Shown: piece by piece, positions 4,300 to 57,865 of the stretch | How the letters are laid out: each line of letters starts with the position of its first letter | Position numbering within the stretch: position 1 is the first letter of the stretch | From: Rhodothermales bacterium | Lineage (GTDB): Bacteria > Bacteroidota > Rhodothermia > Rhodothermales > Bin80 | Length of the DNA: 64,000 bases | Assembly (NCBI GenBank): GCA_028278205.1 | Contig: JANQES010000094.1 | Location: 17,995 to 81,994 of the forward strand | Direction: 5' to 3' | Notes under the pieces: model-generated | What the model saw: the letters and a program-made list of their open reading frames with translations, nothing else | The model's database searches: none | What the model was told of the DNA's origin: nothing | Program-made: the position numbers and the translations under genes

Positions 4300-4319
4300 T
4301 TAATCTTGGGCTGCCAGCC

Positions 4320-5564
4320 ATGTCGGATTTAAACGAAGCGGCTCTGCACAAGTACACGCTCTATGGACCCGCTTACAAAACCGATCCATACACTACCCTT
4401 AGGGCCTTGCGGAGCGAGGGGCCTGTTTGCCCGCTGATGGGTATTACCGGAAAAAAAAAAGTATGGTTCGTCTCGCATTATAAAGAAGCCCGACAGGTGT
4501 TGCGCGATCACAAACGCTTCGTGACGGACATCCGCAATACCTATACACCCGAAGAAAAAGCGGCCCAACGGCCCGTGCCCAGGCTGGAGCGGTATCTGCG
4601 GGGGCACTTGCTCAGGCGCGACTGGGAGGACCACACGCGGCTGCGCAACCTGTTGCAAGCGGCCTTCCACAAACGGGCCGTCGAACAAATGCGACCCCGT
4701 ATTCAGCACCTTGCCGAGGCCTTGCTCGATGCCGTAGAGGATCAGCACGAGATGGACCTCATTGAGGACTTTGCCTTGCCCCTTCCCAGCCAGGTTATCC
4801 TCGAAATCTTAGGCTTTCCTACCGATCATGATCATGTAGCTCGCCTCCGTTCGTGGACAGAAGCCATTACCATTCATCCGCAGGCCGTGATAACACCGCA
4901 AGAACGCCTTGAGACCCAGGCGGGCTTCATCACCTATCTGCGCGCCTGCTTCGACGAGCGCAAGGCCAACCCACAAAACGACTTGATGACGCACCTTGTC
5001 AGGGCGGTGCAAGAAGGACAGCTTCGCAAGGAAGAATTTTTCAGTATGGTCACCATCTTGCTCATGGCCGGGCATGAACCCTCCGTCAGAATGATCGGCA
5101 ACAGCATGTTGGCCTTGCTTCAACATCCCGAGCAACTTGGCATGCTCAAGGCCCACCCTACGATGCTTGATCGAACCATAGAGGAACTGTTACGCTATGA
5201 TGGTTCCGTGGAAAGAGCCACCCCCCGCTTCGCCACCGAGGATCTGGAACTCGGAGGCCAACAGATAAGCCGGGGCGATACCGTGATTGTCATCCTGACC
5301 AGCGCCAATCGCGATGAGCACGTATTTGAAAACCCGGACGTCCTCGATGTTGACCGGCAGGCCCGTTCTCATCATCTAAGCTTCGGCTATGGACCCCACT
5401 TCTGCGTGGGAGCCTCGCTGGCACGCCTCGAGATCAAAATCGCCATCGAAACCTTATTGCGCCGGTTCCCCAGACTACGCCTTGCCGTACCGGTCGCATC
5501 CCTTGAATGGGCCATCCTCCCGGTCGTACGTGTTATAAGCAGCCTGCCGGTTCGGTGGGATTAA
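4320..5564 (+). CDS. Cytochrome P450
   Basis: Heme-thiolate loop FGYGPHFCVGASLA, I-helix LLMAGHEPS, ExxR-like EELLRY. ATG at 4320 (MSDLNEAAL) is preferred over the upstream ORF-track start, which overlaps the previous gene. Confidence 0.9.
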   Translation: MSDLNEAALHKYTLYGPAYKTDPYTTLRALRSEGPVCPLMGITGKKKVWFVSHYKEARQVLRDHKRFVTDIRNTYTPEEKAAQRPVPRLERYLRGHLLRRDWEDHTRLRNLLQAAFHKRAVEQMRPRIQHLAEALLDAVEDQHEMDLIEDFALPLPSQVILEILGFPTDHDHVARLRSWTEAITIHPQAVITPQERLETQAGFITYLRACFDERKANPQNDLMTHLVRAVQEGQLRKEEFFSMVTILLMAGHEPSVRMIGNSMLALLQHPEQLGMLKAHPTMLDRTIEELLRYDGSVERATPRFATEDLELGGQQISRGDTVIVILTSANRDEHVFENPDVLDVDRQARSHHLSFGYGPHFCVGASLARLEIKIAIETLLRRFPRLRLAVPVASLEWAILPVVRVISSLPVRWD

Positions 5565-6787: not shown

Positions 6788-7111
6788 CTAATTGCTCCAA
6801 TCGCCCAGATCGCAGGCATCGCATGCAGGACAAGGTGAGCCGCCTGCGGCCTGCTCCAGGTCTGCCTCGCTCAACTCCTCCCCTGCCGAGACCGGAGCCG
6901 GCAACGCCGCCGCATAATCGTACCCCTGCGCGTCGAAAAACCTGATCGTGAAGCTCTCGGGCACGGCCACGCCCGTCTCCTGGCGGATGGCTGCGTGCGG
7001 ATCCTTCAGCGCCAGGGCGCGGAATTCGGGGTCGCTCGCCGCCCGATGAAGCACTGCTTCGATGGCGGCCTGGTGATCCTGTCCGGGCCGTTCGACTGAG
7101 TATCTGCTCAT
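6788..7111 (-). CDS. RiPP precursor peptide with NHLP-type (nitrile hydratase-like) leader and Cys/Asp-rich core
   Basis: 107 aa. Leader AASDPEFRALALKDPHAAIRQETGVAVPESFTIRFF...EELSEADLEQAAGG, then core SPCPACDACDLGDWSN. AGGAGG lies 7 nt upstream. The ATG overlaps the TGA of the upstream rSAM gene (ATGA). Confidence 0.8.
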   Translation of the reverse strand: MSRYSVERPGQDHQAAIEAVLHRAASDPEFRALALKDPHAAIRQETGVAVPESFTIRFFDAQGYDYAAALPAPVSAGEELSEADLEQAAGGSPCPACDACDLGDWSN

Positions 7112-7135
7112 GATGTACCTCCTTGTTTGAGTGAC
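7070..7135. repeat. Direct repeat copy 1 (rSAM 3-prime end plus precursor 5-prime end)
   Basis: See 6656-6721. The two copies are 414 bp apart. Confidence 0.85.
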
Positions 7136-8622
7136 TGGTGCTTTCGCCAACCGAGGTGATGCCGGTCGAAGTCGTTGAGGTTGTCGTCGATCATGATGCC
7201 GAGTTCCACCGCGCGCCTGAGTTCCTGGCACCAGCGATCATCCGGCTCGTGCATCGATCCGTGCTCTTCTAGGCTCATGTGAAAGCAGCCGCCGCCGCAG
7301 AAATACCGCGCCCAACACGCGCTACACTTGGGATGCGACAGGCCGTAGTTCTCGAAGTAGGGTTGACGCCGGGTCAGGTCGAAGCCTTCGTTGACGTTAC
7401 CGAGCTTCATGTCTTCCTGCCCCACAAAGCGGTGGCACGGATACACATCGCCGGTGTTGGAAATGCTCATGTAGCTTCGACCGGCGCCGCAGAAATACAG
7501 CTTTCTATTCTTCGTCCAAAGCCGCTTCAAAATGTCGTTGAACCGAGAGGAATAGACGGGGCGGCGTGTTTTGATCAGGTTGATCGTCTCCCGGGCTATC
7601 TGCTCCAGGCTGTTTAAGATTTTCTGCAAATGTACCTGCTTGAGATGCGAGTCGGGCTGCTGGAGCATCACTACATCCGCCCGATGATACGTGGGGCGAT
7701 CCGTGAGCACGGGCAGCGCCTGGAACAGGTCGTCCTCCTCCACGACGCCGGCAGCGACAGCCTCATCAGCGGGCACCTCCTCCAGATTAGGCATCGCGAC
7801 GGTGGTCAACTGAACCGCTTTGAAGCCGATCTCAAGCAGCGCGCGTTGCACCTTTTCCAAATCGGCATTGTAGCCGGTGATCGTAGCGCGCCCGCTGGCC
7901 CGTCCGTCTCTTGAGTCAAGAAAACGTTCTACCCTGGCCTTGATATCTTCGTAGGACCCTTTACCTCCTTTGAAGGGCCGGTTTTTATTCTGCATCTCGG
8001 CATCGCCATCATAGCTGACGACGACGCCGAAGTCGTGTTCGTTGAGGTAGTCAATCGTCTCCTCATTAAATCTGGTCCCGTTGGTCGTTATGGTGAAAGC
8101 AATCTTTTTGCCCTTCGTTTCGGCTTTTTCGGTTGCATAGGCCACCACCTCCTTGATCAGTGGGAAATTCAGCAGCGGCTCGCCCCCAAAGAAACAAATC
8201 GTTAACTGCTCAGCGTCTCCTGCATTATCGATCAGGAAGTCAACCGCTTGATAGGCCGTTCCGCCATTCATATACCCTTTGTGGCCGTACTCTCCGCCCA
8301 CGCCGTAGCAGTAAATACAATCGAGGTTGCAAAGCTGCGCCACGTTCAAGGCGATGGTGGCGATGGGCGCCTTTTCAGGATTCGCAAGCTTGACTTGAGG
8401 CAGCGCAGGCGGTGCGTCCAGTCTCAGGTTCAATTGATCGAGCGCCTCCAACAACGCCGGCTCGACCTGCCGGTCATCGAGCACCGGTTGCTCGCCGAGA
8501 TCCCGAACAGCCTTCGCCAACGGCGCACTGATGCGATAGGCCTCCATGTGCTCAACGTGGAACAGATACCACACATCTTCAAGCGCGAAGGTATGATGCT
8601 CGGCCAGATAAAAGACGGACAT
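7108..8622 (-). CDS. Radical SAM / SPASM-domain peptide maturase
   Basis: CNLDCIYCY (CxxxCxxC) near aa 98. C-terminal auxiliary-cluster cysteines CGAG...YPCH...HPKCSACWARYFCGGGCFH. Confidence 0.9.
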   Translation of the reverse strand: MSVFYLAEHHTFALEDVWYLFHVEHMEAYRISAPLAKAVRDLGEQPVLDDRQVEPALLEALDQLNLRLDAPPALPQVKLANPEKAPIATIALNVAQLCNLDCIYCYGVGGEYGHKGYMNGGTAYQAVDFLIDNAGDAEQLTICFFGGEPLLNFPLIKEVVAYATEKAETKGKKIAFTITTNGTRFNEETIDYLNEHDFGVVVSYDGDAEMQNKNRPFKGGKGSYEDIKARVERFLDSRDGRASGRATITGYNADLEKVQRALLEIGFKAVQLTTVAMPNLEEVPADEAVAAGVVEEDDLFQALPVLTDRPTYHRADVVMLQQPDSHLKQVHLQKILNSLEQIARETINLIKTRRPVYSSRFNDILKRLWTKNRKLYFCGAGRSYMSISNTGDVYPCHRFVGQEDMKLGNVNEGFDLTRRQPYFENYGLSHPKCSACWARYFCGGGCFHMSLEEHGSMHEPDDRWCQELRRAVELGIMIDDNLNDFDRHHLGWRKHQSLKQGGTS

Positions 8623-9319: not shown

Positions 9320-10219
9320 TCAGATCGTAAAAGGCTTCTCGGCGTCGAAGCTTAAATGGTCCGGCCCGATCACGTAGTGGTTGGGCTGTTGCTTTTCAGG
9401 CATCTTCGCGATGATCTCCTGGTAAAACGCCTCATAGTCCCCCTCGAAAGCTCCCTCGCCCCACACCTCTAACAGCGTAGCCGTAAACCGGCCATGGGGG
9501 ATGCTCGGGTGTTCCATGGAGTACTGGTCGTCCTGGCAGCCCGATATCAGCCGCACCCTGGCGTGCAACGACGAGGGGTTCTCCGGCAGGGCTTGCTGGA
9601 TGGCTACGTAGAACGGCGAGTTGTTCGTAAACGTCCGCACCGCTTCGGCGGGGGGCATGAACCGGCCCGCCGGCACTTCGCCTTCCGGCGCGTCGGGGTC
9701 TTTGGTTATCGTGCCGCTGTGGCAGCTGTCCGAGAGCACCAGCACACGCACGCCCTCGGCAAACTCGGCCCATAGCTCGTGCAGTTCGTCGTCGAGGATC
9801 TGGCCGTCGTAGAGGCACCAGGTCTCATCGATGTCGTCCTCCTCGTCGTCGTAGCCCTCTTCGTCGGGCACGGTGCCGCCATGGCCGGCGTAGGTGAGCA
9901 AGAAGCAATCGCCTGTTTTGAGCGAGCGGGCCGCGCTGCGGATGCCCTGGATCACGCCCTCACGCGTGGCAAAGTCGGACAAGAGCACGCTCGACCGGAA
10001 GCCTTGTGCGCTGGCAAGCCCGCGGAGCGCTTCGGCATCGGCATGGCAGTTGGGCAGGTAGCCGTCCCAGCCGCTGTAGTGATCGGGGTCCAACCAGTTG
10101 ACCCCGATGTGGAGGGCCAGGCCTTTGGGCCTGGCATCTGCGGGTTGCGCCTCGGCTTGTGCCGCCGGGGCATCGCTTAATTCCTGGGGCACTTGACGGC
10201 CCGTATCAGGTCCAGCCAT
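9320..10219 (-). CDS. Caspase-fold peptidase (C14 family)
   Basis: His/Cys dyad motifs LTYAGHGG and VLSDSCHSG. 299 aa with a low-complexity N-terminus MAGPDTGRQV. Confidence 0.85.
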   Translation of the reverse strand: MAGPDTGRQVPQELSDAPAAQAEAQPADARPKGLALHIGVNWLDPDHYSGWDGYLPNCHADAEALRGLASAQGFRSSVLLSDFATREGVIQGIRSAARSLKTGDCFLLTYAGHGGTVPDEEGYDDEEDDIDETWCLYDGQILDDELHELWAEFAEGVRVLVLSDSCHSGTITKDPDAPEGEVPAGRFMPPAEAVRTFTNNSPFYVAIQQALPENPSSLHARVRLISGCQDDQYSMEHPSIPHGRFTATLLEVWGEGAFEGDYEAFYQEIIAKMPEKQQPNHYVIGPDHLSFDAEKPFTI

Positions 10220-10286: not shown

Positions 10287-13200
10287 TCAGGCGGACAGGG
10301 CCGGAGCCCAGGTTACAGGCAGCGCGCCGAGGGTTTGGAGGCCGGCCTCCGAAGAGAAGTAATTCAGGTGATGACACACCACGTCGAGCGTCTGCGGGGC
10401 CGGCTGCCGGACGCCGCCCACAGCCCCGATGCTCCGGCTGCTCACTGCGATGTCGTTGGGCTCGTCGTCGTACACGATACCCCCGACACCCACCGTGGCC
10501 TTTTCCAGCAGCCGCTTAAACCCGCCGCCTTGCACCTCGTAGTCGGTGATGTCTCCGGCGAGGATCGTGTAGGGAATGCCGGGGTCGTCGCTGCTGTTGA
10601 GGGTATTCAAGAACGTAGAGCCGGGGGTCATCTGGCCCAGCGTGACGGTCACCTCTTCGGCCCCTTTCAGGACGTTGAGCACGGTGCCGGCAAAGGGGAT
10701 CTGCTTCGTGATAAAGTTGATCGACAGGTTGAGCGCCGTGGAGACGAACTTCCGGTATTGTTCGATGGTGCCGAACTTGCTGCCGCCGTTGGGCGTGCCG
10801 GCCAGGATCAGGTGATCGACCACCTTGTTGCCCTCCTCCTGCTCGATGAACCAGCGGGAGACCAGCCCGCCCATCGAGTGAGCCAGGATGGTGAGATGCT
10901 TGCCGTCGTCTTCTGTGAGCCCGGCCAGGGCCAGCTCGCGCTTCAACGTCTGGGCGGTCTCTTCGATGGGAGTGTTGAGGTTTTCGTAGTCGTAGGTCAG
11001 CATCAGATCGAAACGGTCTTTGAGGCTCCGGCCCTCGGCGTCGCGGGCGTGGGGCAGTCCGGCGGCTATCGATTCGGTGTCGCCGATGATGCCGTGGATC
11101 GCCAGCAGGATGGTGTCGGCGGCGGCGACCTTTTCGTTCAGGCTCTCGCTGCGGCGTTCGACGCTGCCGTCTTCCTGGAAGTCCGCCCAGCAGAGCTTAT
11201 TGATGCGGTCGGTCTCTTGCTTGAGCGCCACCTTGAAGAAAGCCATCTTGAGCGCCTTGAACAGGCTCCGGTCCTGCGGTTCCTCGCCGAAGGGATTGAC
11301 GGCCTGCCCGCCGTCGGTGAGTACCGGCTCGACGTCGGGCAAGGCGCGGATGCGGACGACGGTTTCACCCTCTTCGACCGCGGAATCGCCGATGACGACG
11401 AAGTTTTGCCCGTCGAAGGCGATGGGCAGCAGCATCGCGTCGTTGTCGTCCGCGCCGGGCAGGACGATTTCGAGCGGGTCGTCGAAGAGCGCCGCCGGAT
11501 CGTCGATCTCCAGGTTGCTGAGTTCCACCACGTTCTGCGCGCCGAGATCGCGGTGGCTGCTGAAGTTCATCATCTGGAAGGCCGGGTCGTCGAAGAGCGC
11601 GAAGCGGTTGGCCGGGTCGGTGCTGCGCGTGCCGGTCTGGGCCGCGCCGAGGTTGACTTTTGCGCGGACGCCGGCGTGCGGCCGGATGCGCAACGCGCCG
11701 CCGGCCAGGCTCACCTCGTTGGCGGCCTGGACCTCATCGACCTGCCGGACCATCGTCACCCGGATCGTCCGGCTGGCCCAGGCATCGAAGACCTTTTGCG
11801 GGGCAAACGCGCCGAACGTCGCCCGCGACCCGCCCAGGCCGTCCTGGAGAAGCTGGATGTAGTCCAACTCTTCGGTCGTGACGAACAGCTTGAAATAGAC
11901 GGTGGCCTCTTGCTCGTCTTCGTTGAGGCCCCACCCCATAATGCCATCCGGCATCCCCTTCATCAGCGGGAATATGGCCTGGCCCTCGTGTTCGCCGGGC
12001 CTGAAGACGATCTCGCCCTCGTCGCACTGGATGCTGTAGTCGTTGTTGAGCAGCAGTAGATAGAAATAAAGCTCCTGCGTGGCGCTGGTCTTGACGACAG
12101 GCTTGAAGCCCATCAAGTCGGCCTTCGCGTCCGCATTCCAGAACGTGTTCTCCTTGGAAGCATACAGCTTGATCTCCGGCCCGGTGAAGGTGCCCTGAGA
12201 CACCGGCCCTCTATCACCTGCCTCGAAAACCTCCACGTCGAAGTCGAACATATTCTCGATCCGCGAATCAGGGTTTTCCAACGCCACCGTCCGCTCCCAG
12301 CGCGCAATGCGGCCCAGGCTTTGGAGGATGAGTTGGGCTAATTTGGCCGTGTACGCACCCTGGTCAGGCCCCTCTTCGAGGTGTTCCTGATGGATTTTCC
12401 GCCTGCTTTCCACGTCGCGGATGATGAACGCGCCGTCTTGCGCTTCTACTTCCACCTCCGGCTGCTCGTCGCCGTCGCGGGTCTCTACGTAGAGGACGTT
12501 TTTCGAGCGGTCCCAGTGTTCTTTGAGCAGGTCCACACCCGCCACGTCGCCGTGAATCCAGACGTATTTGGGCGGTGCGGGTAAATGATGGAGGACGCCT
12601 TGATAGGTCTTCTTGGGTTCCAACGCGGCGTCCGCCGGTAGCGCGAGCGGGCTGCGCTGCGCACCGACACGGGTGATGGTGGCCTGGGCGACGACTTGCT
12701 TGTCGGGTGCCGGCCCCCGGACTTCGACTTCGAGGGGTTTCTCCGCCTGCGTAGGCAGGCCGTGGATGGCGCCGCACTTGACGTACCAGGCGTCGCTGCC
12801 CGCGTCGTGGTAGACCTCGTAGGTGTCCGGGTCGCCCAGGGGCTCGCCGCTCAGGAAGCGGGTGTAGGGGTTGAAGCTGCCGATGGTCTCGAACTGCGGC
12901 GTCTGGTTCTTGCCGATCCGTTTGGCCGAAGCGCGGGTGCGGACGAAGAGGTCGGCGTAGTTGATGGCGCCGTTGGCGCTGCCCAGCGCGCGCATCAGGC
13001 TGCTGGTGAAGATGCCGCCGAAGGGCTTGTCGCCCGCCTTCTGGACGCTCTCGCAGGCCGAAAACAGGACGTGTTTGGACAGGGGGACGTGCAGCGCCTC
13101 GCCCTGCCGGGCATAGTAGCCGTCGAGATACGAAGCCAGGGGCCGCGCGTCGCCGCCACGAGCCGGGACGTTGCGCGTCCGGAACAGCGGATCGTCGCCG

Positions 13201-13682
13201 AGGTCGCGGGTGCCGGAGCCGGAGTGGCAGCAATCCAGCGAGACGACCAGGTGCGGCCCCGACGCCTTCTCGGAACCATCGGGAAACTGCGTCTCCACCT
13301 CGTGCAGCAGGGCGGCCAGTTCTTTGTCGGCCAGGTGGAGGCCGTCGGGGCGGCTGTCGAAGCAAACCAGCGTCTGGTCTTTGCCGTTGGGTTCTAGCTT
13401 GAGGAATTCCTCGGCGGTGGGTTCTTCGGAACCGTGGCCGCTGAAATGAAAGAAGGCCACGTCGTCCGCGCCGGCCCGGCACAGGTGCTCGCGGAAGCCT
13501 TTGACGAGGTTGGCGTAGGTGGCATTTTCGTTTTCGAGCCGGTGGATGAAAAGCTCGCCCTCGCCGAACTGACCGCGGAGGAATTTTTCAACCTTGTCGA
13601 TGTCGAAGATGCAACCGTTGAGCGTAGAGACGGGCGCCGGGTAGGTGTTGATGCCGACGAGGAAAGCGTATAGGCGTTTCAT
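10287..13682 (-). CDS. Caspase-fold peptidase fused to a C-terminal alpha/beta-hydrolase (lipase/esterase-like) domain
   Basis: ATG at 13682 (MKRLYAFLVGINTY). FHFSGHGS and SLDCCHSGSG dyad at the N-terminus. C-terminus has LAIHGIIGD, nucleophile elbow ILAHSMGGLV, and LAGTPNGGS. About 550 aa of unassigned middle region. Confidence 0.85.
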   Translation of the reverse strand: MKRLYAFLVGINTYPAPVSTLNGCIFDIDKVEKFLRGQFGEGELFIHRLENENATYANLVKGFREHLCRAGADDVAFFHFSGHGSEEPTAEEFLKLEPNGKDQTLVCFDSRPDGLHLADKELAALLHEVETQFPDGSEKASGPHLVVSLDCCHSGSGTRDLGDDPLFRTRNVPARGGDARPLASYLDGYYARQGEALHVPLSKHVLFSACESVQKAGDKPFGGIFTSSLMRALGSANGAINYADLFVRTRASAKRIGKNQTPQFETIGSFNPYTRFLSGEPLGDPDTYEVYHDAGSDAWYVKCGAIHGLPTQAEKPLEVEVRGPAPDKQVVAQATITRVGAQRSPLALPADAALEPKKTYQGVLHHLPAPPKYVWIHGDVAGVDLLKEHWDRSKNVLYVETRDGDEQPEVEVEAQDGAFIIRDVESRRKIHQEHLEEGPDQGAYTAKLAQLILQSLGRIARWERTVALENPDSRIENMFDFDVEVFEAGDRGPVSQGTFTGPEIKLYASKENTFWNADAKADLMGFKPVVKTSATQELYFYLLLLNNDYSIQCDEGEIVFRPGEHEGQAIFPLMKGMPDGIMGWGLNEDEQEATVYFKLFVTTEELDYIQLLQDGLGGSRATFGAFAPQKVFDAWASRTIRVTMVRQVDEVQAANEVSLAGGALRIRPHAGVRAKVNLGAAQTGTRSTDPANRFALFDDPAFQMMNFSSHRDLGAQNVVELSNLEIDDPAALFDDPLEIVLPGADDNDAMLLPIAFDGQNFVVIGDSAVEEGETVVRIRALPDVEPVLTDGGQAVNPFGEEPQDRSLFKALKMAFFKVALKQETDRINKLCWADFQEDGSVERRSESLNEKVAAADTILLAIHGIIGDTESIAAGLPHARDAEGRSLKDRFDLMLTYDYENLNTPIEETAQTLKRELALAGLTEDDGKHLTILAHSMGGLVSRWFIEQEEGNKVVDHLILAGTPNGGSKFGTIEQYRKFVSTALNLSINFITKQIPFAGTVLNVLKGAEEVTVTLGQMTPGSTFLNTLNSSDDPGIPYTILAGDITDYEVQGGGFKRLLEKATVGVGGIVYDDEPNDIAVSSRSIGAVGGVRQPAPQTLDVVCHHLNYFSSEAGLQTLGALPVTWAPALSA

Positions 13683-13841
13683 GATAATTCGTTGTAGGTT
13701 GGTTAAAGAATAAATCCCGTCGAGGAAGGGCTGTGCAATGAACACAGGTTGGAGCCGCGCCCGGCCTGTCACAGTCGCGCTTTACCTATCTATGCCTAAA
13801 ACAGCACGGAATTTTTCATACCCTCGAAAAAAAGAGGGCAC
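13683..13841 (-). promoter_or_regulatory. Promoter/5-prime-UTR module copy A (upstream of the caspase-lipase gene)
   Basis: Alignable along its whole length, up to the ATG, with 21509-21670. Conserved core GAGGGYATGAAAAATTCCGYRCTGTTTTAGGCATRGATAGGTAAAG. Possible TTCCGY-N17-TAGGTA promoter. Confidence 0.55.
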
Positions 13842-13878: not shown

Positions 13879-15315
13879 CTACGACAACACTTCGACGCCT
13901 GGAAGCAAGTCTTCCAAAATGGCAAACCGTACGCGTGTGCGTTCCTGGCTTTCGTCGTTATTCGAAATCAGGCCGCGCCGTACCTGCTTTTTGACCCTTT
14001 TCAGCGTTGCCTGGTGCGAGGTAACGTCATTATAGAGGTCCTCGTCTCTATCCTTCAGACCGGTTTCAAGCAAGTCGAGCGCCTGTTCGAGTTTATCCGA
14101 GGCGACGAGTTGCCGGATCTCTTCGACGGCGTCCTGCTTTCCAGGGCTGGGCATTGTGCTTGAGGGCCGGCGTGCGGAGGGTTGGGGTGCGCGGGACGGG
14201 GTCAGTTGCGGCGCGAAGAGGGTGCCGTCGGGCGAGCGCATAAACAGCACGGGTGTGGCCCATTCTACGGAGTCGTCCAGGCAGATCGCCACGCGGCCCT
14301 CGGCCACGGCCTCATCCACCGAAACGCCGAGCGCCAGTTGTCTATAGATCTCTCCGGCAAACGTGATCGCGGCGGTGTCGGTGATGGGAAACTGCATCGC
14401 CACCACCGCCGGGATGCCTTCCATCACCAGCGCCGAGGCCACCCCCGCGAACGGGTCGAGGTGGTCGGTTTTGGTGCTCTGGGCCGTCTGACACGCATTC
14501 AAGAAGACCAGGCGCACGCCGGTGCCGCGCAGCGCAACCCGGAGCTGATCCCCGCTCACCTTCAACTGACAACCCTGCTCATCCTCCATCAACAAGACCC
14601 CCTCTCCGGTGTTCGCGTCGAAGGTGCCGTGGCCCGAATAGTGCAAGACGTGAAACGGCTGCGCTTTGAGCCGGGCGCGTAAGGCTTGCAACGTGGTGCC
14701 CTGGACGACCTCGACTGCGACGTGCTGCGTATCCTGCCAGCTCGCTTCGATCTTTTGTCGCTCTGCCTCCAGGTTGAGCGCGTCGGTGCCGGGCGGGTTG
14801 GCCAGCACCACGAGGATGCGCAGTGGCGGCGCGAACGGCGGCGGATCTTCGGGGCGCATCACGTCGAGGTAGCGCACGACCGGGGTCTGGCTGTTGAGGT
14901 TCAGGTATTCGTTCTTCTCCGGGTCGTAGAGGAGTTCCCAGGGGAGGTTCGCCAGGAGAGCATGGTCCGGCTGGTTCAGGTCGAGGTGGAGCTTGATGCG
15001 CAGCCCACCTTTGCCGTAGACCCGGCCTCGGCTCTCGGAGAACGCCGTGCCCACCGGCCCGGTGAACAGCGCCTCGAAGAGCCGGGTGCCTACCGCGCGC
15101 GGCGAGAGATCCTGGGTGAAGATCGGCGCAAACGTGCCGCGATACCGCCCCAGCGCAGCCAGGACGCCCTCGGCTTCGCCGGGCGCGTAGGGAAGCTGGA
15201 GCGGTGAGGTGGACGTTTGGCCGGCGGGAGACTGTATAACCTGGACGGTGAAGCGCCCTTCGGCCTGGGCCTCCATCTGAATGGAGAAGTCTTCGTAGCG
15301 GATCATGGTGTTCAT
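13879..15315 (-). CDS. CHAT-domain protease with C-terminal helical adaptor-like (EAD-like) module
   Basis: LPWELLYD, HVLHYSGHG and LVFLNACQT (CHAT His/Cys). The last 85 aa align with the C-terminus of the SIR2-like protein. Confidence 0.85.
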   Translation of the reverse strand: MNTMIRYEDFSIQMEAQAEGRFTVQVIQSPAGQTSTSPLQLPYAPGEAEGVLAALGRYRGTFAPIFTQDLSPRAVGTRLFEALFTGPVGTAFSESRGRVYGKGGLRIKLHLDLNQPDHALLANLPWELLYDPEKNEYLNLNSQTPVVRYLDVMRPEDPPPFAPPLRILVVLANPPGTDALNLEAERQKIEASWQDTQHVAVEVVQGTTLQALRARLKAQPFHVLHYSGHGTFDANTGEGVLLMEDEQGCQLKVSGDQLRVALRGTGVRLVFLNACQTAQSTKTDHLDPFAGVASALVMEGIPAVVAMQFPITDTAAITFAGEIYRQLALGVSVDEAVAEGRVAICLDDSVEWATPVLFMRSPDGTLFAPQLTPSRAPQPSARRPSSTMPSPGKQDAVEEIRQLVASDKLEQALDLLETGLKDRDEDLYNDVTSHQATLKRVKKQVRRGLISNNDESQERTRVRFAILEDLLPGVEVLS

Positions 15316-15349
15316 GAGGACTGGGGTAAGGGGCTCTTCTATTGGGGAT

Positions 15350-17197
15350 TCACTGGCTGGCCGTTAACTGCTCGGTGGATTGCCCGGAGGCTTCCTTTAG
15401 CACTGAATTGAGGCTATCCTTTATCGAGCGCAAGCGTTCGATTTCTTTCTTCTTAACCTCCACGAGGCTGTCATTCCTGGCTTGCTCATAGATGATAACA
15501 TCTTGTTCTAATCCTTTAATTTTCAGATTTTTTTCTTCAATCTTTAAGGCCATGATACTATCTGCTGCATCCTTAACGAGGCCGCCTTCCTCAGCTTGCC
15601 GATAGATGATGGTGTCTTGTACTAATACGCCAATACTTGTTTTGATTTCGCCAATCTGTGCACCTAAGGATGCCTGCAAATGCTCTCTAGCCATTTGATA
15701 GTTCTCCTCAGCTTCTTGTGTCGCTCGTTTGGCAGAATTGTAATAGAAGCCGACGAACACCAGCGCGATTAAGGCGATGCCAGCTAAGATATAGGCGAGG
15801 CGGCGTCCCTGGACGGCTTTAACCCGAAGCGCAGCTTCCTCCTTCGCTTTGGCCAGGGCCTCCTCGGCCCGTCGCTCAGCTTCGCGGCGTTCAGCTTCCG
15901 CTTGCCTGTGCAGGGCTTCCTGTTCGCGGCGTCGTTCTTCGGCCTGGCGGGCGTGTTTGGCCTCCAGGATGGGCTCCACCAGCGTATCGTGGCTCAACTC
16001 GTAGGTGTAGCCGCCGCTCATGTTGGGCTCGGCCCGCAGCAGGTGGTGTTTGTTGACCAGCAAGCTCAGGATCTCATCGGAGATCCCTTTACCGTGGATG
16101 ATGCCTTCGTAGAGCGAGATCCGCCGCTTGTCCGGCTCGAAGATCAGGTCTTCCTCGATCAGCTTGCGCACGGTGAGGCGTTCCTCATCGGTGGGTATCT
16201 CGTCCAGCATGGCGTCGTAGTAGCGCCGGTAGATCCGGCTGAGGTCGCCCAGGTCGTCGGGGCGAACCTGGGGGATGCCGGCCTGATTTCGCTGCCTGAC
16301 GGCGCCGTCCTCAACCAGGTGTTCGGCGTGCTGGCAGATGATCTGGAGCTGGGTGGTCTCGATGGTAGCCTGGCCGCCGCCGGAGAGAAAATTGAGGATG
16401 AAATCGAGCGCCTCATCGGTGTAGTCGAAGCGCTGGACGGCAAAGTCGGAGTCGTTGTGATAGGCCGGGTTGAGGATGGCGTCTTCGGCTTGAAGACGGG
16501 TCAGCGGTTTGAGTTGATAGGTTTTGTGGAGGATATCCGGCAGGTGGTCTTTGAGTTCGTCGAGGAAGCTCATGCGGTCGGAGCGGATGGCGAAGACCAC
16601 TTTGAGGTTGAGCGGCTGGAAGAGGGCTTCCTGTTCGGCGGCGTCGAGGGTTACGGCCTGGCGTTCGAGCACCGCGCGGACGGGCTTGGGGATCCGTTCG
16701 TAGAGCGCCTGGGCCAGTTGGGCGGCAAAGGCCTTAATCTGAGCCGGAGGGTAGGTGAAGAGCTCTTCGAACTGATCCAGAATCAGCAGCAGGGGCTGAT
16801 CGGGGTGAAGGCCCTGCACCGACTTCAGGGCTTGCCAGAGCGGAACCGCTTCGCCGAAGCGGCCGGTCCAGTCGCCGGCCCGGCCCAGGGCGCGGAGGCG
16901 TTCCAACACGTTTTGCAGGGGCGTGTGTGCATCGCCGGCCTCGGTGTAGCTGCCGAAGCGGAGCGGCACGGCAAAGACCCCGGCGCGCCCGCCTTCACGA
17001 GATTCTTGCAGCCGGGGGACCACAGCGGCATTGAGCAGCGAGCTTTTGCCGAGGCCGGATTTGGCATAGAGTACCACCATCTGCTCCAGCCTGATCTTTT
17101 CGACCAGGCGGCGGGTGTCTTCTTCGCGCCCGTAGAAGATACGGCGGTCGTTCGGGGTAAAGGGCTGGGCGCCGGGATAACGATAAGCTGTGCTCAT
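15350..17197 (-). CDS. STAND-type P-loop NTPase (nSTAND-like) with coiled coil, one TM helix and a C-terminal tail
   Basis: YPGAQPF..IFYGREEDT, Walker A AKSGLGKSS, Walker B LLLILDQFEELF, FAIRSD. Then a charged coiled coil, the TM helix LAYILAGIALIALVFVGFYY, and a 129-aa AT-richer tail. Confidence 0.85.
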   Translation of the reverse strand: MSTAYRYPGAQPFTPNDRRIFYGREEDTRRLVEKIRLEQMVVLYAKSGLGKSSLLNAAVVPRLQESREGGRAGVFAVPLRFGSYTEAGDAHTPLQNVLERLRALGRAGDWTGRFGEAVPLWQALKSVQGLHPDQPLLLILDQFEELFTYPPAQIKAFAAQLAQALYERIPKPVRAVLERQAVTLDAAEQEALFQPLNLKVVFAIRSDRMSFLDELKDHLPDILHKTYQLKPLTRLQAEDAILNPAYHNDSDFAVQRFDYTDEALDFILNFLSGGGQATIETTQLQIICQHAEHLVEDGAVRQRNQAGIPQVRPDDLGDLSRIYRRYYDAMLDEIPTDEERLTVRKLIEEDLIFEPDKRRISLYEGIIHGKGISDEILSLLVNKHHLLRAEPNMSGGYTYELSHDTLVEPILEAKHARQAEERRREQEALHRQAEAERREAERRAEEALAKAKEEAALRVKAVQGRRLAYILAGIALIALVFVGFYYNSAKRATQEAEENYQMAREHLQASLGAQIGEIKTSIGVLVQDTIIYRQAEEGGLVKDAADSIMALKIEEKNLKIKGLEQDVIIYEQARNDSLVEVKKKEIERLRSIKDSLNSVLKEASGQSTEQLTASQ

Positions 17198-18282
17198 ACC
17201 AGTTCCTCGTTAAGACTCAGTAGATTAAATCGTAGCTTGGCGCGTGAGGCAGAAGCTTCCTCTTCCGTGACGATACCCTGCCGCTCCTTACGCTTCTGGC
17301 GCGAGAGCCGGCCACTGAGACTGATCGCCTCGTCGAGGAATTCGTCCTCGCCGATGTCTTCGAAGTGATCGGTCAAGAAGGCCAGCGCATCTTCCAGGCG
17401 ATCCTGCTCCACCATTTGCTTGACCCGCTCGGAGGGTCCGGCTCCCGCTGCCGGGTCGGGCCGGAGCAGGCCGGCGGCGGCGCATTGCGTGTGCAGTTGG
17501 TCTATGAACGCCCGCACGCCTTCCTGGTCGCGGATGATGCGGATGTCGAACTCGCCATCGAGCACATTCATCACCGCCTGGTCTACCTCGGTCTGCTCCG
17601 GCACCCAGGTGTAGGCCACGTGGCTGTCGTTGATGCTCCGGATGAGCCGTAGCAAGAGTTGCACGTACCACTTCTCGAACTGAAAGCCCAGGAAGACAAA
17701 GTAGCGCGCCCGTTGCAACGCAGCCTTGAGACTGGAGCCAAGCTCGCGAGCCCCGAGGATCGATTTGATGTATTCGAAGAGGTCAGCGTGGGTGAGGATC
17801 AGCGATTCCTCGTCTTCGATGCAGCCGAAGAGGTCGTAGAGCAGCGGCCGGTCGGCGGTGGGGGCGTCCATCTCCGCCCCGCAGCGCTTCATATGATAGA
17901 ACCCATAGTTGAACAGATAGGGGATCTCCAGGCGGGGAAAGGTCTGCCTGGGATTGAGGTAGGGAGAGAAGGAAAGCAGCAAGTGCAGTTGTATCGAGGC
18001 CAGCTTACGCAAGAGATCCGGCACGAGGGGATGTTTTTTCAACTGGTCTTTGAGCGTGAAGTAGCTCTCGTTCTGGGCCGAGCGTTTGCCGAAGAGGAAG
18101 AGTTCGTCGTGCTTGTAGTAGGCCAGCAGGTTGCGCTCGTGCTCCTGCCGGATCGTTTCCATCAGGTACGGATGCAGCGGGCGACTCTCGCCGTCTACAT
18201 CGATCTCCAGCATGTTCGGCCCCAGGAGGACAACGCATTTGTCCTCTCGGATGGCTTGAAGAAGGTGGTCCCAGTTAATCAT
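17194..18282 (-). CDS. SIR2_2-like (divergent) domain protein with C-terminal helical adaptor-like module
   Basis: Motif order resembles the SIR2_2 family (VVLLGPNM, LLLSFSPY, LLYDLFGC, LILTHADLFEY, FVFLGFQFEKW), but the expected catalytic positions look substituted. Its TGA overlaps the NTPase ATG. Confidence 0.6.
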   Translation of the reverse strand: MINWDHLLQAIREDKCVVLLGPNMLEIDVDGESRPLHPYLMETIRQEHERNLLAYYKHDELFLFGKRSAQNESYFTLKDQLKKHPLVPDLLRKLASIQLHLLLSFSPYLNPRQTFPRLEIPYLFNYGFYHMKRCGAEMDAPTADRPLLYDLFGCIEDEESLILTHADLFEYIKSILGARELGSSLKAALQRARYFVFLGFQFEKWYVQLLLRLIRSINDSHVAYTWVPEQTEVDQAVMNVLDGEFDIRIIRDQEGVRAFIDQLHTQCAAAGLLRPDPAAGAGPSERVKQMVEQDRLEDALAFLTDHFEDIGEDEFLDEAISLSGRLSRQKRKERQGIVTEEEASASRAKLRFNLLSLNEELV

Positions 18283-18335: not shown

Positions 18336-21218
18336 TTACTGCTTCGGTTCGGGCGGCACGAGCATTTCTCCCCGGTCGTTGATGTAAAACATCAGGTTAT
18401 GCTCGGCCACGTAGACCCGGGCAACCCGCTCGTCGTTCTTGTCATGGAAGGGCGTCACGGCGTCGTAGCGGGCCTCGATGGGGTCATAACTATCGCGGTT
18501 TTTATCCCAGCGCATGAAGCCCCATTTGCCCTTTTGTTTAACCAGGAGCAAGTTGGAACTGGAATCGTTGGAACCGGAATCAGCGGAGATACCGTAACCG
18601 ATCTGCTCATAGTCACAGGGTAGGAAACGGAGGGTATCCGTCTTCGCCCCGTCGGAGCCGTTCGCCGCGAAGGCCACGAAGCCCTTGCGGTTGCCTTGCC
18701 AGGTGAGATACATGCGACTTCCGACGTACGCCAGACTGTCGTACTCCGGTGAAAGGACCACCTCCCCGGCAGCATTGATCAGGCCGACTTTGCCGTTTCT
18801 CTCTACCTGCGCGAGCCCCTCGAAAAAGGGCGCTACCCTATCAAAGAGATACATCGGGTCAACGACTTCGAGGCCGTGCTTGTCGATCACGCCCCATAGA
18901 CCGACAACGAGGCTGTCCTGGTCGTTCACTTCTATGCTGTCTCTCTTCACCCAGGCGAGCCCCTCGGAGAAATCCCTTATCTGATCATACTGCGGTTTGA
19001 CGATGTTAAACGGTTCGGCGACGATGTCGCCCTGATTGTTGATAAAACTCCATTGATCCTCTCCCTTCACCAAAGCGAACCCCTCGGAGAAATCCCTTAC
19101 CTCATCATAGCCATTCGTCGGGTCGACGACGAATTTGCCCTGCTGGTTGATTGCGCCCCATTGGCCGTCTCTCTTCACCCAGGCGAGCCCCTCGGAGAAA
19201 TCCCTTACGTCATCATACCCATTCGTCGGATCGACGACGAGGCTGTTCTTGTTGATAAAGCCGTATTTCTTTGTGCTGTCTTGGTACACCCAGGCGAGCC
19301 CCTCGGAAAAAGGCCCTACCCTATCAAAGCCGTACTGCGGATCGACGACGAATTTGCCCTGCTGGTTGATCACGCCCCATAGGCTGCCCTGGCGCACCCA
19401 GGAGAGCCCCTTGGCACGCCCTACCCTATCAAAGTCATACTTCGGGGCAACGACAATGCCGTCCTGGTTGATGTCGACGACGACGCTGCTGTCCTGGTTG
19501 ATAAAGTCGTATTCTGTGCTGTCTTGGCGCACCCAGGCGAGCACCTCGAAGAAGCGCCCTGCCCTATCAAACTCAAGTTCCAGATTGACGACGAGGCTGC
19601 CCCGCTGGTTGATCACACCCCATTGGCCGTCTCTCTTCACCCAGGCGAGACCCTCGGAGAACGCCCTTACCTCATCATACCCATTCGTCGGATCGACGAC
19701 GAGGCTGCCCTGCTGATTGATCACGCCCCATTGGCCGTCTCTCTCCACCCAGGCGAGCTCTTTGGAGAAGCGCTCTACCCTATCAAACGCATGATCCAGT
19801 TTGACGACTTCGACGCCCAGCGTGTCGATCACGCCCCATAGGCCGGCCCTCTGCACCCAGGCGAGACCCTCGGAAAAGGGTTCTACCTCATCAAACGCAT
19901 GATCCAGTTTGACGACTTCGACGCCCAGCGTGTCGATCACGCCCCATAGGCCGGCCCTCTGCACCCAGGCAAGCCCTGAGGAGAACTCTCTTACCTCATC
20001 AAACTCATGTTTCAGATTGACGACGAGGCTGCCCTGCTGGTTGATCACGCCCCATCGGCCGGCCCTCTGCACCCAGGCAAGCCCTGAGGAGAAGCGCCTT
20101 GCCCTATCAAAGTCATGCTTCGGGTCGACGACGAATTTGCCCTGCTGATTGATCACGCCCCATAGACCGACGTTGAGGCTGACCTGGTTGATCACTTTTT
20201 TGCTGTTTTTGCGCACCCAGGCAAGCCCCTCGGAAAAGGACCCTACGTAACTAATATGTTCCAGTTTGACGATGAGGCTGTCCTGCTGGTTGATCACGCC
20301 CCATTGGCCGTCTCTCTTCACCCAGGCAAGCCCCTCGGAGAACGCCCTTTCATGTTTCAGATTGACGACGGGGCTATCCTGCTGGGAGAAGTGCTCTTCT
20401 TTATCAAACAGCGGTTTGACGATGCGGACACTCTGCTGGCGGTACGGTTTGCGCGACACGAAATCAGGCCTATCCACTTCATTCTTTTTGCATCCCTTTG
20501 CGTCGAATGCGGAAACTACAGGCTCTTTGGCCTTGTCTGGAATCCCCCCATAGTAGTTGAATGTATCTGTAACATTGCTATCCGATAATACTGCGGAGTG
20601 CAGCCAATTGTAGCTTTCGCTTTTTTGCTGCTCTTCACAGTCACACGCGCGTCCTTGTGTACACACCAACCAGTACTTATCCTCACTTTGTGCAATGGCT
20701 ATGCCCTTCCAGAAGCCTTTGGGGTCTTCCCAAAGAAAATCTCCATAACGCTGCCCCGCTGTGTCTATCACCGCAAACTTTTTATTCTTAATACTATACG
20801 CCCACGAGAAATTTTCCTCGCTGCCTTCTTCAAAAAAATATTCTTTCATATCAGCGAGGAGCCTGGCGATTTCTTTCTTTTTTTTTCTGAGTTCTTCGGA
20901 AAGGTCAGCTTGATGCATCTCATATTTGATTCCACCGAAAAGATGATCATTCATCCTTTCAGCGACCGCCTTTGCGCTGTCCGGTCTATACCGCGCTGCC
21001 GCCTGATACTTGTGGATCGCTTGCTCGTATTTCCGTCTCTCCACTAAGTTATCGGCATCGGACATCAGGCGCTTGTAGGTCGTGCCTTCTTCGGTCGTCT
21101 CTGCGTACTGCGTGTCAGCCTGAGCAACGATATCCGATTGTGCCCGTGTGACCTGGGGGTAACTGCCGGCCAGGATTAACGCAGCGAGGAGCGCGATGGG
21201 GTAGCGGCGTGCGTTCAT
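18336..21218 (-). CDS. Secreted WG-repeat (KWG-type) protein, about 17-19 repeats
   Basis: Signal peptide MNARRYPIALLAALILAGSYPQVTRAQS. Repeated unit F(S/D)EGLAWV.RDGQWGVINQQG..VV with a period of about 36 aa. The N-terminal region of about 230 aa is AT-richer. Confidence 0.85.
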   Translation of the reverse strand: MNARRYPIALLAALILAGSYPQVTRAQSDIVAQADTQYAETTEEGTTYKRLMSDADNLVERRKYEQAIHKYQAAARYRPDSAKAVAERMNDHLFGGIKYEMHQADLSEELRKKKKEIARLLADMKEYFFEEGSEENFSWAYSIKNKKFAVIDTAGQRYGDFLWEDPKGFWKGIAIAQSEDKYWLVCTQGRACDCEEQQKSESYNWLHSAVLSDSNVTDTFNYYGGIPDKAKEPVVSAFDAKGCKKNEVDRPDFVSRKPYRQQSVRIVKPLFDKEEHFSQQDSPVVNLKHERAFSEGLAWVKRDGQWGVINQQDSLIVKLEHISYVGSFSEGLAWVRKNSKKVINQVSLNVGLWGVINQQGKFVVDPKHDFDRARRFSSGLAWVQRAGRWGVINQQGSLVVNLKHEFDEVREFSSGLAWVQRAGLWGVIDTLGVEVVKLDHAFDEVEPFSEGLAWVQRAGLWGVIDTLGVEVVKLDHAFDRVERFSKELAWVERDGQWGVINQQGSLVVDPTNGYDEVRAFSEGLAWVKRDGQWGVINQRGSLVVNLELEFDRAGRFFEVLAWVRQDSTEYDFINQDSSVVVDINQDGIVVAPKYDFDRVGRAKGLSWVRQGSLWGVINQQGKFVVDPQYGFDRVGPFSEGLAWVYQDSTKKYGFINKNSLVVDPTNGYDDVRDFSEGLAWVKRDGQWGAINQQGKFVVDPTNGYDEVRDFSEGFALVKGEDQWSFINNQGDIVAEPFNIVKPQYDQIRDFSEGLAWVKRDSIEVNDQDSLVVGLWGVIDKHGLEVVDPMYLFDRVAPFFEGLAQVERNGKVGLINAAGEVVLSPEYDSLAYVGSRMYLTWQGNRKGFVAFAANGSDGAKTDTLRFLPCDYEQIGYGISADSGSNDSSSNLLLVKQKGKWGFMRWDKNRDSYDPIEARYDAVTPFHDKNDERVARVYVAEHNLMFYINDRGEMLVPPEPKQ
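19784..19970. repeat. Recent tandem duplication inside the WG-repeat gene
   Basis: The 79 bp at 19784-19862 are identical to 19892-19970 (period 108 bp, or 36 codons). Confidence 0.9.
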
Positions 21219-21862: not shown

Positions 21863-24721
<2,859 letters not shown>

Positions 24722-25082
24722 GGCAGGCAAGGGCTGCCGGTGTGCGTCGAGGTCAATGGGGACACGGCCTGAGCACTTCAGCGCATTGGGGGGGTGCGGC
24801 TCTACTGGTAAACAATAAAACGAGCAAACTCTTAGAAAACAAGATCAAATGAGAAAAAACCCAAAAAACGAGACCACCCGCTACAGCATACCTTGTTTTT
24901 CCTCAGCGGCAGGCCGGGGCGCAGCCTCCGGCGTGTCCATCGCGGCGAAGTGTTCGAGCCCGTTTCCAGCTCGAATGCTTCCTGGCCATCAACCTGATGG
25001 GACATGATGTGCGGGTGCGTATCAGGTGCATTTTCCTGGACAGATCTGGACTGAGCCCTCAAAATTCACTATTTCAACAACA

Positions 25083-57799: not shown

Positions 57800-57865
57800 A
57801 GACCTTATCGACGGTGGGACGTACGGCGACGGGTCCAAGTTAGGTTGTGAATCAGCCGGTGTCAA

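Follow-up and report, generated by a model that had tools for sequence, protein, structure and literature searches.

Positions 17,995 to 81,994 of contig JANQES010000094.1 from a Rhodothermales bacterium (assembly GCA_028278205.1), a stretch of 64,000 nucleotides referred to here as the window, contain a string of genes all on the minus strand and separated by short gaps or overlapping. In order they encode a WG-repeat protein, a SIR2-like protein, an NTPase of the nSTAND1 clade, a CHAT protease and two caspases. The subject here is the NTPase, which ends in a predicted transmembrane (TM) helix and a helical tail and which, lodged in the inner membrane, probably reads the WG-repeat protein as a separately exported sensor in the periplasm. 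Positions below count from the first nucleotide of the window, and homologous loci and proteins carry L and P numbers.

The NTPase, its SIR2 neighbor and the WG-repeat protein

The features on which the argument depends are these:

15350-17197, minus strand: nSTAND1 NTPase open reading frame (ORF), 615 residues
15956-17197, minus strand: NTPase core with helical and winged-helix region, residues 1-414 (Pfam PF20703)
15800-15955, minus strand: charged coiled coil, predicted cytoplasmic, residues 415-466 (from sequence and an AlphaFold2 helix spanning residues 407-535)
15743-15799, minus strand: single TM helix LAYILAGIALIALVFVGFY, residues 467-485 (from hydropathy, family conservation and charge bias)
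15353-15742, minus strand: predicted periplasmic tail, residues 486-615, a helical stalk plus two diverged TPR-like hairpin units
15515-15634, minus strand: tail hairpin unit 1, residues 522-561
15401-15520, minus strand: tail hairpin unit 2, residues 560-599
17194-18282, minus strand: SIR2-like effector with C-terminal EAD11 (Pfam SIR2_2 E = 5e-11, EAD11 E = 6.7e-14)
18336-21218, minus strand: putative exported WG-repeat partner or sensor, 960 residues (WG_beta_rep PF14903 E = 1.9e-114, 11 stretches)
21141-21218, minus strand: predicted signal peptide of the WG protein, residues 1-26, MNARRYPIALLAALILAGSYPQVTRA followed by QSD (from sequence pattern)
20907-21086, minus strand: TPR-like adaptor motif of the WG protein, residues 45-104 (adaptor profile E = 6e-20), with a short coiled coil after it
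18519-20363, minus strand: WG-repeat array, residues ~286-900 (WG_beta_rep)

Residues 7-408 of the NTPase match nSTAND1 PF20703 with E = 5e-29 and 102.5 bits against a cutoff of 27.1, and both nucleotide-binding motifs are intact, Walker A as GLGKSS (residues 48-53) and Walker B as ILDQFEE (residues 139-145). In an alignment of 30 homologs G48, G50, K51, S52, S53, D141, Q142, F143, E144 and E145 are invariant. The SIR2 stop codon overlaps the NTPase start by 4 nucleotides (17194-17197). The NTPase domain begins at residue 7, and neither EAD11 nor any other EAD was found on the protein. Pfam gives no fused C-terminal sensor, whether FGS or repeat array, and no cytoplasmic sensor domain of any kind; what follows the core is a coiled coil, the helix and a tail of 130 residues. 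An earlier sequence-only reading of this DNA had described the same succession of highly charged coiled coil, single TM helix and helical tail, and every part of it was recovered, with all the peptides that it quoted occurring in the ORF; its upstream WG-repeat protein with a signal peptide was likewise found, by the PF14903 match and a signal-peptide-like N-terminus.

Established systems offer little by way of a name. Against PADLOC-DB v2, which covers Avs, bNACHT, DSR, Thoeris and others, the NTPase gave only a marginal match to mad8 (E = 7e-4) and none that was convincing; the SIR2 and WG proteins gave no PADLOC match, and sequence searches of PADLOC, NCBIfam and PDB returned no useful name for the NTPase, SIR2 or WG protein. 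A scan of metagenomes found no closer relatives. Of the loci of the closest homologs, L082 breaks off 422 nucleotides past the NTPase gene, and at L083 no partner adjoins it.

A membrane-spanning NTPase family

The 19 residues of LAYILAGIALIALVFVGFY average 2.45 on the Kyte-Doolittle hydropathy scale, and none of them is charged. The helix is kept in 117 of the 120 best homologs, mostly from Saprospiraceae, Lewinellaceae and other Bacteroidota, as one strongly hydrophobic segment lying 430-510 residues from the N-terminus, and it is present in 132 of 139 nSTAND1 genes from 160 further loci of species-representative genomes and metagenomes. Its flanks are unequal in charge. Over 247 proteins the mean number of lysines plus arginines per 15-residue flank is 5.8 on the N-terminal and 2.6 on the C-terminal side, the N-terminal side being the richer in 230 proteins and the poorer in 6 (Wilcoxon p = 9e-39). 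In the window's protein, where the flanks are KEEAALRVKAVQGRR and YNSAKRATQEAEENY respectively, the counts are 4 versus 2. Because of this asymmetry, and because a large ATPase that has no signal peptide stands at the N-terminus, the topology is taken as N-in/C-out; the flanking charges indicate that the tail lies beyond the membrane.

One homolog, P0067 (883 residues), has the order nSTAND1, TM helix and then domains D2-D4 of GldM. Within the type IX secretion system and gliding motor, GldM/PorM is anchored by one N-terminal helix and its domains 2-4 span the periplasm, so P0067 provides independent support for a periplasmic C-terminus in the family. Helix conservation, charge bias and P0067 thus agree with the earlier proposal that the tail is extracytoplasmic.

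A few relatives depart from the common form. P0067 itself, with a piece of the periplasmic strut of the gliding and secretion machinery fused to the NTPase, may hint at a link to gliding. An nSTAND1 protein from a Nitrosomonas metagenome-assembled genome (L053:9980-12124) has six hydrophobic segments after its core, not one. At L031 two nSTAND1 genes stand in tandem: the product of L031:7369-9708 (779 residues) has no TM helix and ends in a fused SIR2 domain, and that of L031:9746-11635 is the normal TM form with a short tail.

The constant SIR2 gene and the variable sensors beyond the membrane

In 102 of the 120 loci whose upstream DNA is long enough, the gene directly upstream of the NTPase encodes SIR2; at most a few hundred bases separate the two, and they often overlap. 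Such pairs occur at hundreds of loci in Bacteroidota, Acidobacteriota, Verrucomicrobiota, Proteobacteria and others. The conserved core is the upstream SIR2 gene plus the NTPase. EAD11 is present on SIR2 in closer relatives only, and CHAT and caspases are sporadic neighbors or are fused to SIR2. As the constant neighbor, SIR2 may here hold the core role in place of an EAD-bearing NTPase.

What follows the helix varies. By length the post-TM regions were grouped as short (up to 250 residues, n = 50), middle (251-520 residues, n = 21) and long (n = 61). Pfam recognizes WD40 propellers in 13 and TPR in 12 of 63 post-TM regions, with Sel1/TPR also among the domains found there and TPR called in some of the longer tails; FGS (PF03781) follows the helix in at least 8 of the locus proteins and in many homologs. 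The window's NTPase falls in the short class, which is devoid of Pfam domains. The sequence-only reading had remarked on the absence of the usual repeat sensor. This is so for the window's tail; the family does have repeat sensors, and they stand beyond the membrane.

In the partial protein P0011 (614 residues) WG-type repeats (GLALGIDPASGQYGYMDEDGRQKIAYKY...) followed by LRRs can be made out by eye after the TM helix, with no Pfam call at E <= 0.001. The combination of WG and LRR is that of the exported partners, described below, at L034, L036 and L037.

The tail as a duplicated hairpin

AlphaFold2 run on the single NTPase sequence (mean pLDDT, its per-residue confidence score, 75) gives one continuous helix over residues 407-535, which takes in the coiled coil, TM helix and initial 50 residues of the tail, then a break at EEGGL (residues 536-540) and a second helix over residues 541-603. 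The internal repeat noticed on first reading, LVQDTIIYRQAEEGGLVKDAADSIMALK versus LEQDVIIYEQARNDSLVEVKKKEIERLR, is better than expected by chance, with a local alignment score of 46 against 24.8 +/- 4.8 for shuffled tails (p = 0.0015).

No Pfam domain, and no match to a TPR profile, was found in the tail. Neither a word-indexed search nor HMMER against 1.84 billion representatives (at E <= 0.001) found a homolog of it, negatives that are weaker than they look because both searches missed even the query's own protein, which the collection contains; the tail is short, divergent and compositionally biased. A jackhmmer expansion of the tail was set aside, its E-values not being relied on as coiled-coil composition may inflate them.

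Direct comparison with the tails of homologs was more informative. BLAST gave weak matches to the 79-88-residue tails of P0032, P0018, P0078 and P0112, and alignment of such short-tailed relatives (~80 residues) reveals a common plan of a charged stalk of ~30 residues followed by one TPR-like hairpin, with the consensus ..LIQDAxxYxxAGxYxLAxxxLxxALxIDSTNxxL. The window's tail fits this consensus twice, at VLVQDTIIYRQAEEGGLVKDAADSIMALKIEEKN and at GLEQDVIIYEQARNDSLVEVKKKEIERLRSIKDSLN, and its internal repeat is therefore read as a tandem duplication of the hairpin unit. The TPR-like label comes from the alignment to relatives' short tails together with the Pfam TPR calls in the longer tails of P0028, P0034 and P0090. 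On these alignments the tail is not an orphan, and is best described as a duplicated and diverged copy of the family's stalk plus TPR-like hairpin.

Exported partners of short-tailed NTPases

Among the adjacent genes, the one after a short-tailed NTPase is usually a large ORF whose signal peptide ends in alanine or glycine before a glutamine. Glutamine at +1 is reportedly a signature of signal-peptidase-I substrates in Bacteroidota. After the signal peptide these partners have a helical motif, for example QNNYAEAIKQGDAAFKKEQYKLAIDKYFAAEAFDP at L012 and PEFARIMRDAEKAEKEGDFRSAILRYNAAE at L004, then a charged coiled coil of ~30-80 residues and then a variable sensor. A profile hidden Markov model of the motif, the adaptor model, was built from 16 partners, namely those of 15 other loci and the window's own WG protein. 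It found examples outside its training set (the second L018 gene, L030, two at L091, two at L107, L010 and L025) and matches the window's WG protein at residues 45-104 with E = 6e-20, the protein being itself in the training set. The same model recognizes one to three units in many NTPase tails, such as those of L006, L022, P0009, P0028 and P0033.

Where 3 kb or more of downstream DNA is available, adaptor-bearing partners are present at 18 of 34 loci with short tails versus 0 of 54 with longer tails (Fisher p = 9e-10). Restriction to species representatives of Bacteroidota leaves 14 of 23 versus 0 of 11 (p = 7e-4). The link of short tails with adaptor-bearing exported partners is thus exclusive in this sample. 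The family's sensor reaches the periplasm in one of two ways, as a fusion following the TM helix or as a separately exported protein, and this is the strongest argument both for extracytoplasmic sensing and for counting the WG protein as part of the system; the earlier suggestion of a periplasmic repeat protein as sensor gains from these counts and from the WG protein's match to the motif.

The C-terminal parts of the 21 partners examined are diverse: about 10 have WD40, six have LRRs (three of them with a WG repeat before), two have FGS and one has a lectin-type Lcl_C domain, with WG alone in the window's protein and one of unknown type. WG repeats occur in only 4 of the 21, the window's own and, as single repeats by Pfam, those at L034, L036 and L037. 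On this point the sequence-only reading needs correcting: the link is with the adaptor-bearing class of partner and not with WG repeats as such. A WG-specific association had been tried with a model of the window's WG repeats, and was dropped when WG neighbors turned up only at L054 and, weakly, at L036. A search for homologs of residues 27-300 of the WG protein found none, and missed the query's own protein though it is in the collection.

Some loci have more than one partner. L018 has two (L018:11821-14139 and L018:14623-16149), one with WD40 and one with FGS, whose adaptors are near-identical, and L091 and L107 have two motif-bearing partners each, which suggests that several sensors share one NTPase.

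Synonymous-site composition

That the tail DNA is visibly AT-richer than the rest of the gene had been noted at the outset. GC content is 0.42-0.48 over 15250-15700 compared with ~0.63 in the rest of the NTPase gene, and the difference persists at synonymous sites. Third-position GC (GC3) of the tail is 0.485, against an expectation of 0.742 if its amino acids were coded as in 21 other ORFs of the window (z = -7.1); few of the 377 stretches of 130 codons taken along the 64 kb go so low. Amino-acid composition is ruled out as the cause by this corrected z. A family-wide tendency to low GC3 is ruled out too: the tail-minus-core difference here, -0.32, stands at the family's extreme, the median being -0.06, and adaptors differ by a mean of +0.01.

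Residues 61-260 of the WG protein (nucleotides 20439-21038) have a GC3 of 0.50 versus 0.73 expected, or about -0.23 for the adaptor region. Both depressed segments fall within the GC3 range of lower-GC relatives (0.3-0.6), and the composition of tail and WG adaptor region would be consistent with the two interface modules having come from such a relative. As for the idea of a recombined module in the tail, then, the anomaly is specific to this locus and is mirrored in the WG adaptor region; no donor sequence for the AT-rich modules was found.

The EAD11 ends of the effectors are also mildly GC3-depleted, SIR2 at residues 336-362 (17194-17274) and CHAT at residues 319-475 (13891-14361), so that each of the string's four adaptor or interface modules is shifted toward AT at synonymous sites. 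The remaining strong outliers with low GC3 in the window are an AAA_31/ParA-like ATPase gene (56966-58606, minus strand) and the start of the ORF at 4188-5564 (plus strand), which may be non-coding at its listed start.

The other effectors and the surrounding genes

Downstream of the NTPase gene, the string continues with:

13879-15315, minus strand: CHAT (caspase-like) protease with C-terminal EAD11 (CHAT E = 9.7e-36, EAD11 E = 1.3e-15)
10287-13772, minus strand: caspase (Peptidase_C14) fused to a DUF7379 alpha/beta hydrolase (Pfam; PADLOC caspase model E = 1.9e-27)
9320-10219, minus strand: second, stand-alone caspase, at the end of the gene string (Peptidase_C14 E = 1.9e-21)

The same EAD, EAD11, is carried by two neighboring effectors, SIR2 and CHAT; these are its only copies in the window and there is none on the core NTPase. 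CHAT is probably recruited by EAD11-EAD11 pairing with SIR2. Only CHAT and the caspase match generic PADLOC models. In the fusion of caspase with DUF7379 (PGAP1-like) a joining region of ~550 residues is without a Pfam match, and the protein weakly matches the NCBIfam model "caspase, EACC1-associated type" (E = 1.8e-5); the GTG listed as its start probably lies 30 codons too far upstream, and translation may really begin at the ATG of residue 31.

A promoter and terminator scan returned 0 promoters and weak hairpins only, the sigma-70 consensus that it used being unsuited to Bacteroidota. The gene string is flanked by a Ser/Thr protein kinase of 955 residues with a C-terminal TPR array (21863-24730, minus strand), 644 nucleotides upstream of the WG gene, and by a radical SAM/SPASM-domain protein (7108-8622, minus strand) just past the second caspase.

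A proposed trans-envelope mechanism and its alternatives

Taken together, the predicted topology, the tail and the distribution of partners tip the balance somewhat toward a split, trans-envelope NLR-like conflict system, in which the exported WG sensor would dock on the NTPase tail; docking, the direction of signaling, the ligand and the outcome are the inferred steps. Trans-envelope sensing was already the model of the sequence-only reading; nothing found contradicts any part of that model, and its central idea is strengthened by the independent comparison of relatives. The NTPase would be anchored in the inner membrane, the ATPase on the cytoplasmic side, and its continuous helix would extend outward into a periplasmic stalk bearing the two TPR-like hairpins. 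The missing sensor would be the separately encoded WG-repeat protein with its signal peptide, whose TPR-like adaptor and coiled coil would dock on the tail. Tail and adaptor would then be lone TPR-like units flanked by coiled coil and packing in trans, the outcome expected had an ancestral TM-TPR-sensor protein come apart within its TPR linker, which may have been the case. On binding of a periplasmic ligand to the WG array, perhaps part of a phage or competitor, or a molecule derived from the envelope, the signal would be relayed from the tail through the TM helix to the coiled coil, and the NTPase would switch or oligomerize and activate the co-translated SIR2 NADase. Judging from DSR, Thoeris ThsA and SIR2-HerA, activation of SIR2 would deplete NAD+. 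SIR2 would recruit CHAT via EAD11-EAD11 pairing, the downstream caspases would come next, and the result would be growth arrest or cell death. The biological role could be defense against phage or competitors, or programmed death in filamentous Bacteroidota.

Several observations weigh against this picture. The adaptor model does not match the window's own tail, and in a profile-profile comparison the tail hairpins align with the adaptors in register but weakly (hhalign P = 0.003, probability 11%). Co-variation of tail similarity with adaptor similarity is weak as well (partial Mantel r = 0.28, p = 0.02, 18 loci, NTPase-core similarity removed), and coiled-coil composition could inflate r. The adaptor model was trained on Bacteroidota sequences, and the loci are not phylogenetically independent. 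The window's partner lies upstream of SIR2 and not downstream of the NTPase, an arrangement matched only at L048. The NTPase has no EAD11 of its own that would account for its coupling to the effectors. AlphaFold2 on the adaptor alone, as a single sequence, gave a pLDDT of 44 and was unusable. Signal peptides and TM helices were called by hydropathy and sequence patterns, not by a dedicated predictor. Lastly, 16 of the 34 short-tail loci, including that of the close homolog L083, are without an adjacent partner. Most of the probability not given to the trans-envelope sensor lies with variants that keep the tail-partner link with another sign of signaling, or that deny the link.

A reversed sign would make the partner a guard or negative regulator that holds the NTPase off until its loss, cleavage or sequestration releases the enzyme; alternatively the tail and TM helix could sense envelope damage directly, with the partner tuning the response. 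The comparative evidence is the same for this as for positive sensing, since it reveals linkage and not sign; the short-tail loci lacking a partner mean that the NTPase may work alone, and a helix continuous through the membrane could pass on a membrane perturbation. Yet the partners are classic ligand-binding scaffolds that vary by locus, are sometimes doubled (WD40 plus FGS at L018) and belong to the same domain types that are fused as sensors in the long forms, so that positive recognition of diverse ligands fits better than a uniform guardee, and a guard is considered rather unlikely. The link is denied outright if TM helix and tail only tether or oligomerize the NTPase, sensing being cytoplasmic and the WG protein an unrelated exported neighbor. 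The database searches that found no tail homolog, the lack of a Pfam domain, the rarity of WG repeats beside relatives and the partnerless L083 locus all suit such a passive anchor. It is at odds with the specific N-terminal motif of the short-tail partners, absent from all 54 long-tail loci, with the lack of any cytoplasmic sensor domain on the NTPase and with the WD40, TPR, FGS or GldM that follows the helix in relatives, and it is regarded as unlikely.

Two further explanations concern the tail and the helix themselves. The low GC3 of the tail, at the extreme of the family, would suit its having entered recently from elsewhere, or its being an artefact of annotation such as read-through into non-coding DNA, and in either case having no function of its own. 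An open frame of 130 codons at ~45% GC is however improbable by chance (estimated at roughly 6e-4), and the tail is amphipathic and helical by AlphaFold2, aligns position by position with relatives' short tails and has a significant internal duplication; in any event function and foreign origin can coexist, and a functionless tail is very improbable. It has also to be asked whether the hydrophobic segment might be a buried helix of a soluble protein, so that the whole protein including the tail would be cytoplasmic. The topology is deduced from hydropathy and sequence patterns rather than from a dedicated predictor or experiment, and nSTAND1-FGS proteins of Thiohalocapsa have been predicted cytoplasmic by others (PMC10907252). 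Set against that are the high hydropathy of a 19-residue segment devoid of charge, the strong charge asymmetry across the family, the GldM periplasmic module after the helix in P0067 and the signal peptides that the detached sensors have of their own, which together leave hardly any room for a soluble form.

Relation to known systems

The nSTAND1 clade, the EADs and STAND-FGS systems were defined by Kaur, Burroughs, Iyer and Aravind (eLife 2021, PMC8195603, section 7; eLife 2020, PMC7159879), in whose scheme the EAD is at the NTPase N-terminus and the sensor is fused. The window's system shares with theirs the PF20703 clade, EAD-tagged SIR2 and CHAT neighbors, caspase-type peptidases and relatives with FGS, WD40 or TPR sensors, and the EAD-coupling principle (PMC7159879) is the basis for the proposed activation of CHAT and caspases via EAD11 pairing. 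It differs in having no EAD on the NTPase, SIR2 as the constant partner upstream and a TM helix between NTPase and sensor, and in that about half of the short-tail loci whose flanking DNA is long enough have a separate, exported, adaptor-bearing sensor. Neither the SIR2 pairing nor the TM helix nor the exported partners were found in the main text of PMC8195603 or PMC7159879.

Avs1-5 (Gao 2022) and bNACHT (Kibby 2023, 10.1101/2022.07.19.500537) share with it a three-part logic (effector, STAND switch and a sensor at the C-terminus) as well as effectors of the abortive-infection type, SIR2 and proteases among them. The characterized members of those families are soluble single chains that sense phage proteins in the cytoplasm, in contrast to the predicted exported and detachable sensor here. 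The idea of periplasmic sensing by TM-bearing STANDs had been raised earlier: Kibby et al. suggested for bacterial NACHT proteins with TM segments that the signals they read may be intramembrane or periplasmic (10.1101/2022.07.19.500537), and Dore et al. (PMC10907252), who predicted nSTAND1-FGS targets to be cytoplasmic, had one NACHT target with a periplasmic lectin domain. Membrane-proximal conflict systems of the iSTAND ternary and GAP1-N2 GTPase types likewise have TM segments followed by extracellular binding domains, and their describers have them act at the membrane or cell wall (PMC7159879). They use other NTPases (MoxR/vWA/iSTAND and GAP1 GTPase), and no SIR2 plus nSTAND1 pair or exported adaptor-bearing sensor has been described for them. 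An experimental precedent for exported sensing comes from the Esr pathway of oral Actinobacteria (bioRxiv 2026, PMC13622651), where the Sec-exported WD40-propeller EsrA1 senses epibionts and sets off a cytoplasmic defense program; unlike the system of the window it is in another phylum, signals by a kinase/FHA chain and by inducing Esx transcription, and lacks a STAND NTPase-TM protein. In open-access full texts no description was found of a SIR2 plus nSTAND1-TM core or of a detachable, adaptor-bearing exported sensor.

By analogy, the arrangement would resemble animal Toll-like receptors and plant LRR receptor proteins with their co-receptors, in having an extracytoplasmic repeat scaffold, a single TM helix and cytoplasmic effectors of the death or NADase type. 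Soluble accessories are known there too, as with MD-2 or CD14 on the membrane receptor TLR4. There is no homology, and the cytoplasmic module here is a STAND ATPase. In eukaryotes that ATPase belongs to intracellular NLRs and not to surface receptors.

Implications

To our knowledge, all bacterial STAND/NLR-like immune sensors characterized so far meet their trigger in the cytoplasm and have the sensor fused. If the proposal is right, a large and phylogenetically broad SIR2 plus nSTAND1 family senses across the membrane, which would add a new sensing compartment, and a subset in Bacteroidota has made the sensor a detachable, exported plug-in with a common adaptor. A wider generalization, plausible though held with less than even confidence, is of a modular surface-type immune receptor in Bacteroidota and other Gram-negative phyla, in which exchangeable exported modules (WD40, LRR, WG, FGS, lectin) would plug into a membrane NLR-like ATPase via a split TPR-like periplasmic adaptor and fire SIR2 and caspase-like effectors, the adaptor and tail cassettes being exchanged between genomes. 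The adaptor motif provides a handle for finding further exported sensors. The system would be a prokaryotic counterpart of receptor/co-receptor immune signaling, and a tractable one for how a STAND protein is triggered through a single TM helix; it would also raise the matter of which periplasmic cues, be they phage ejection proteins, lysins, competitor toxins or epibionts, are taken by these bacteria as danger.

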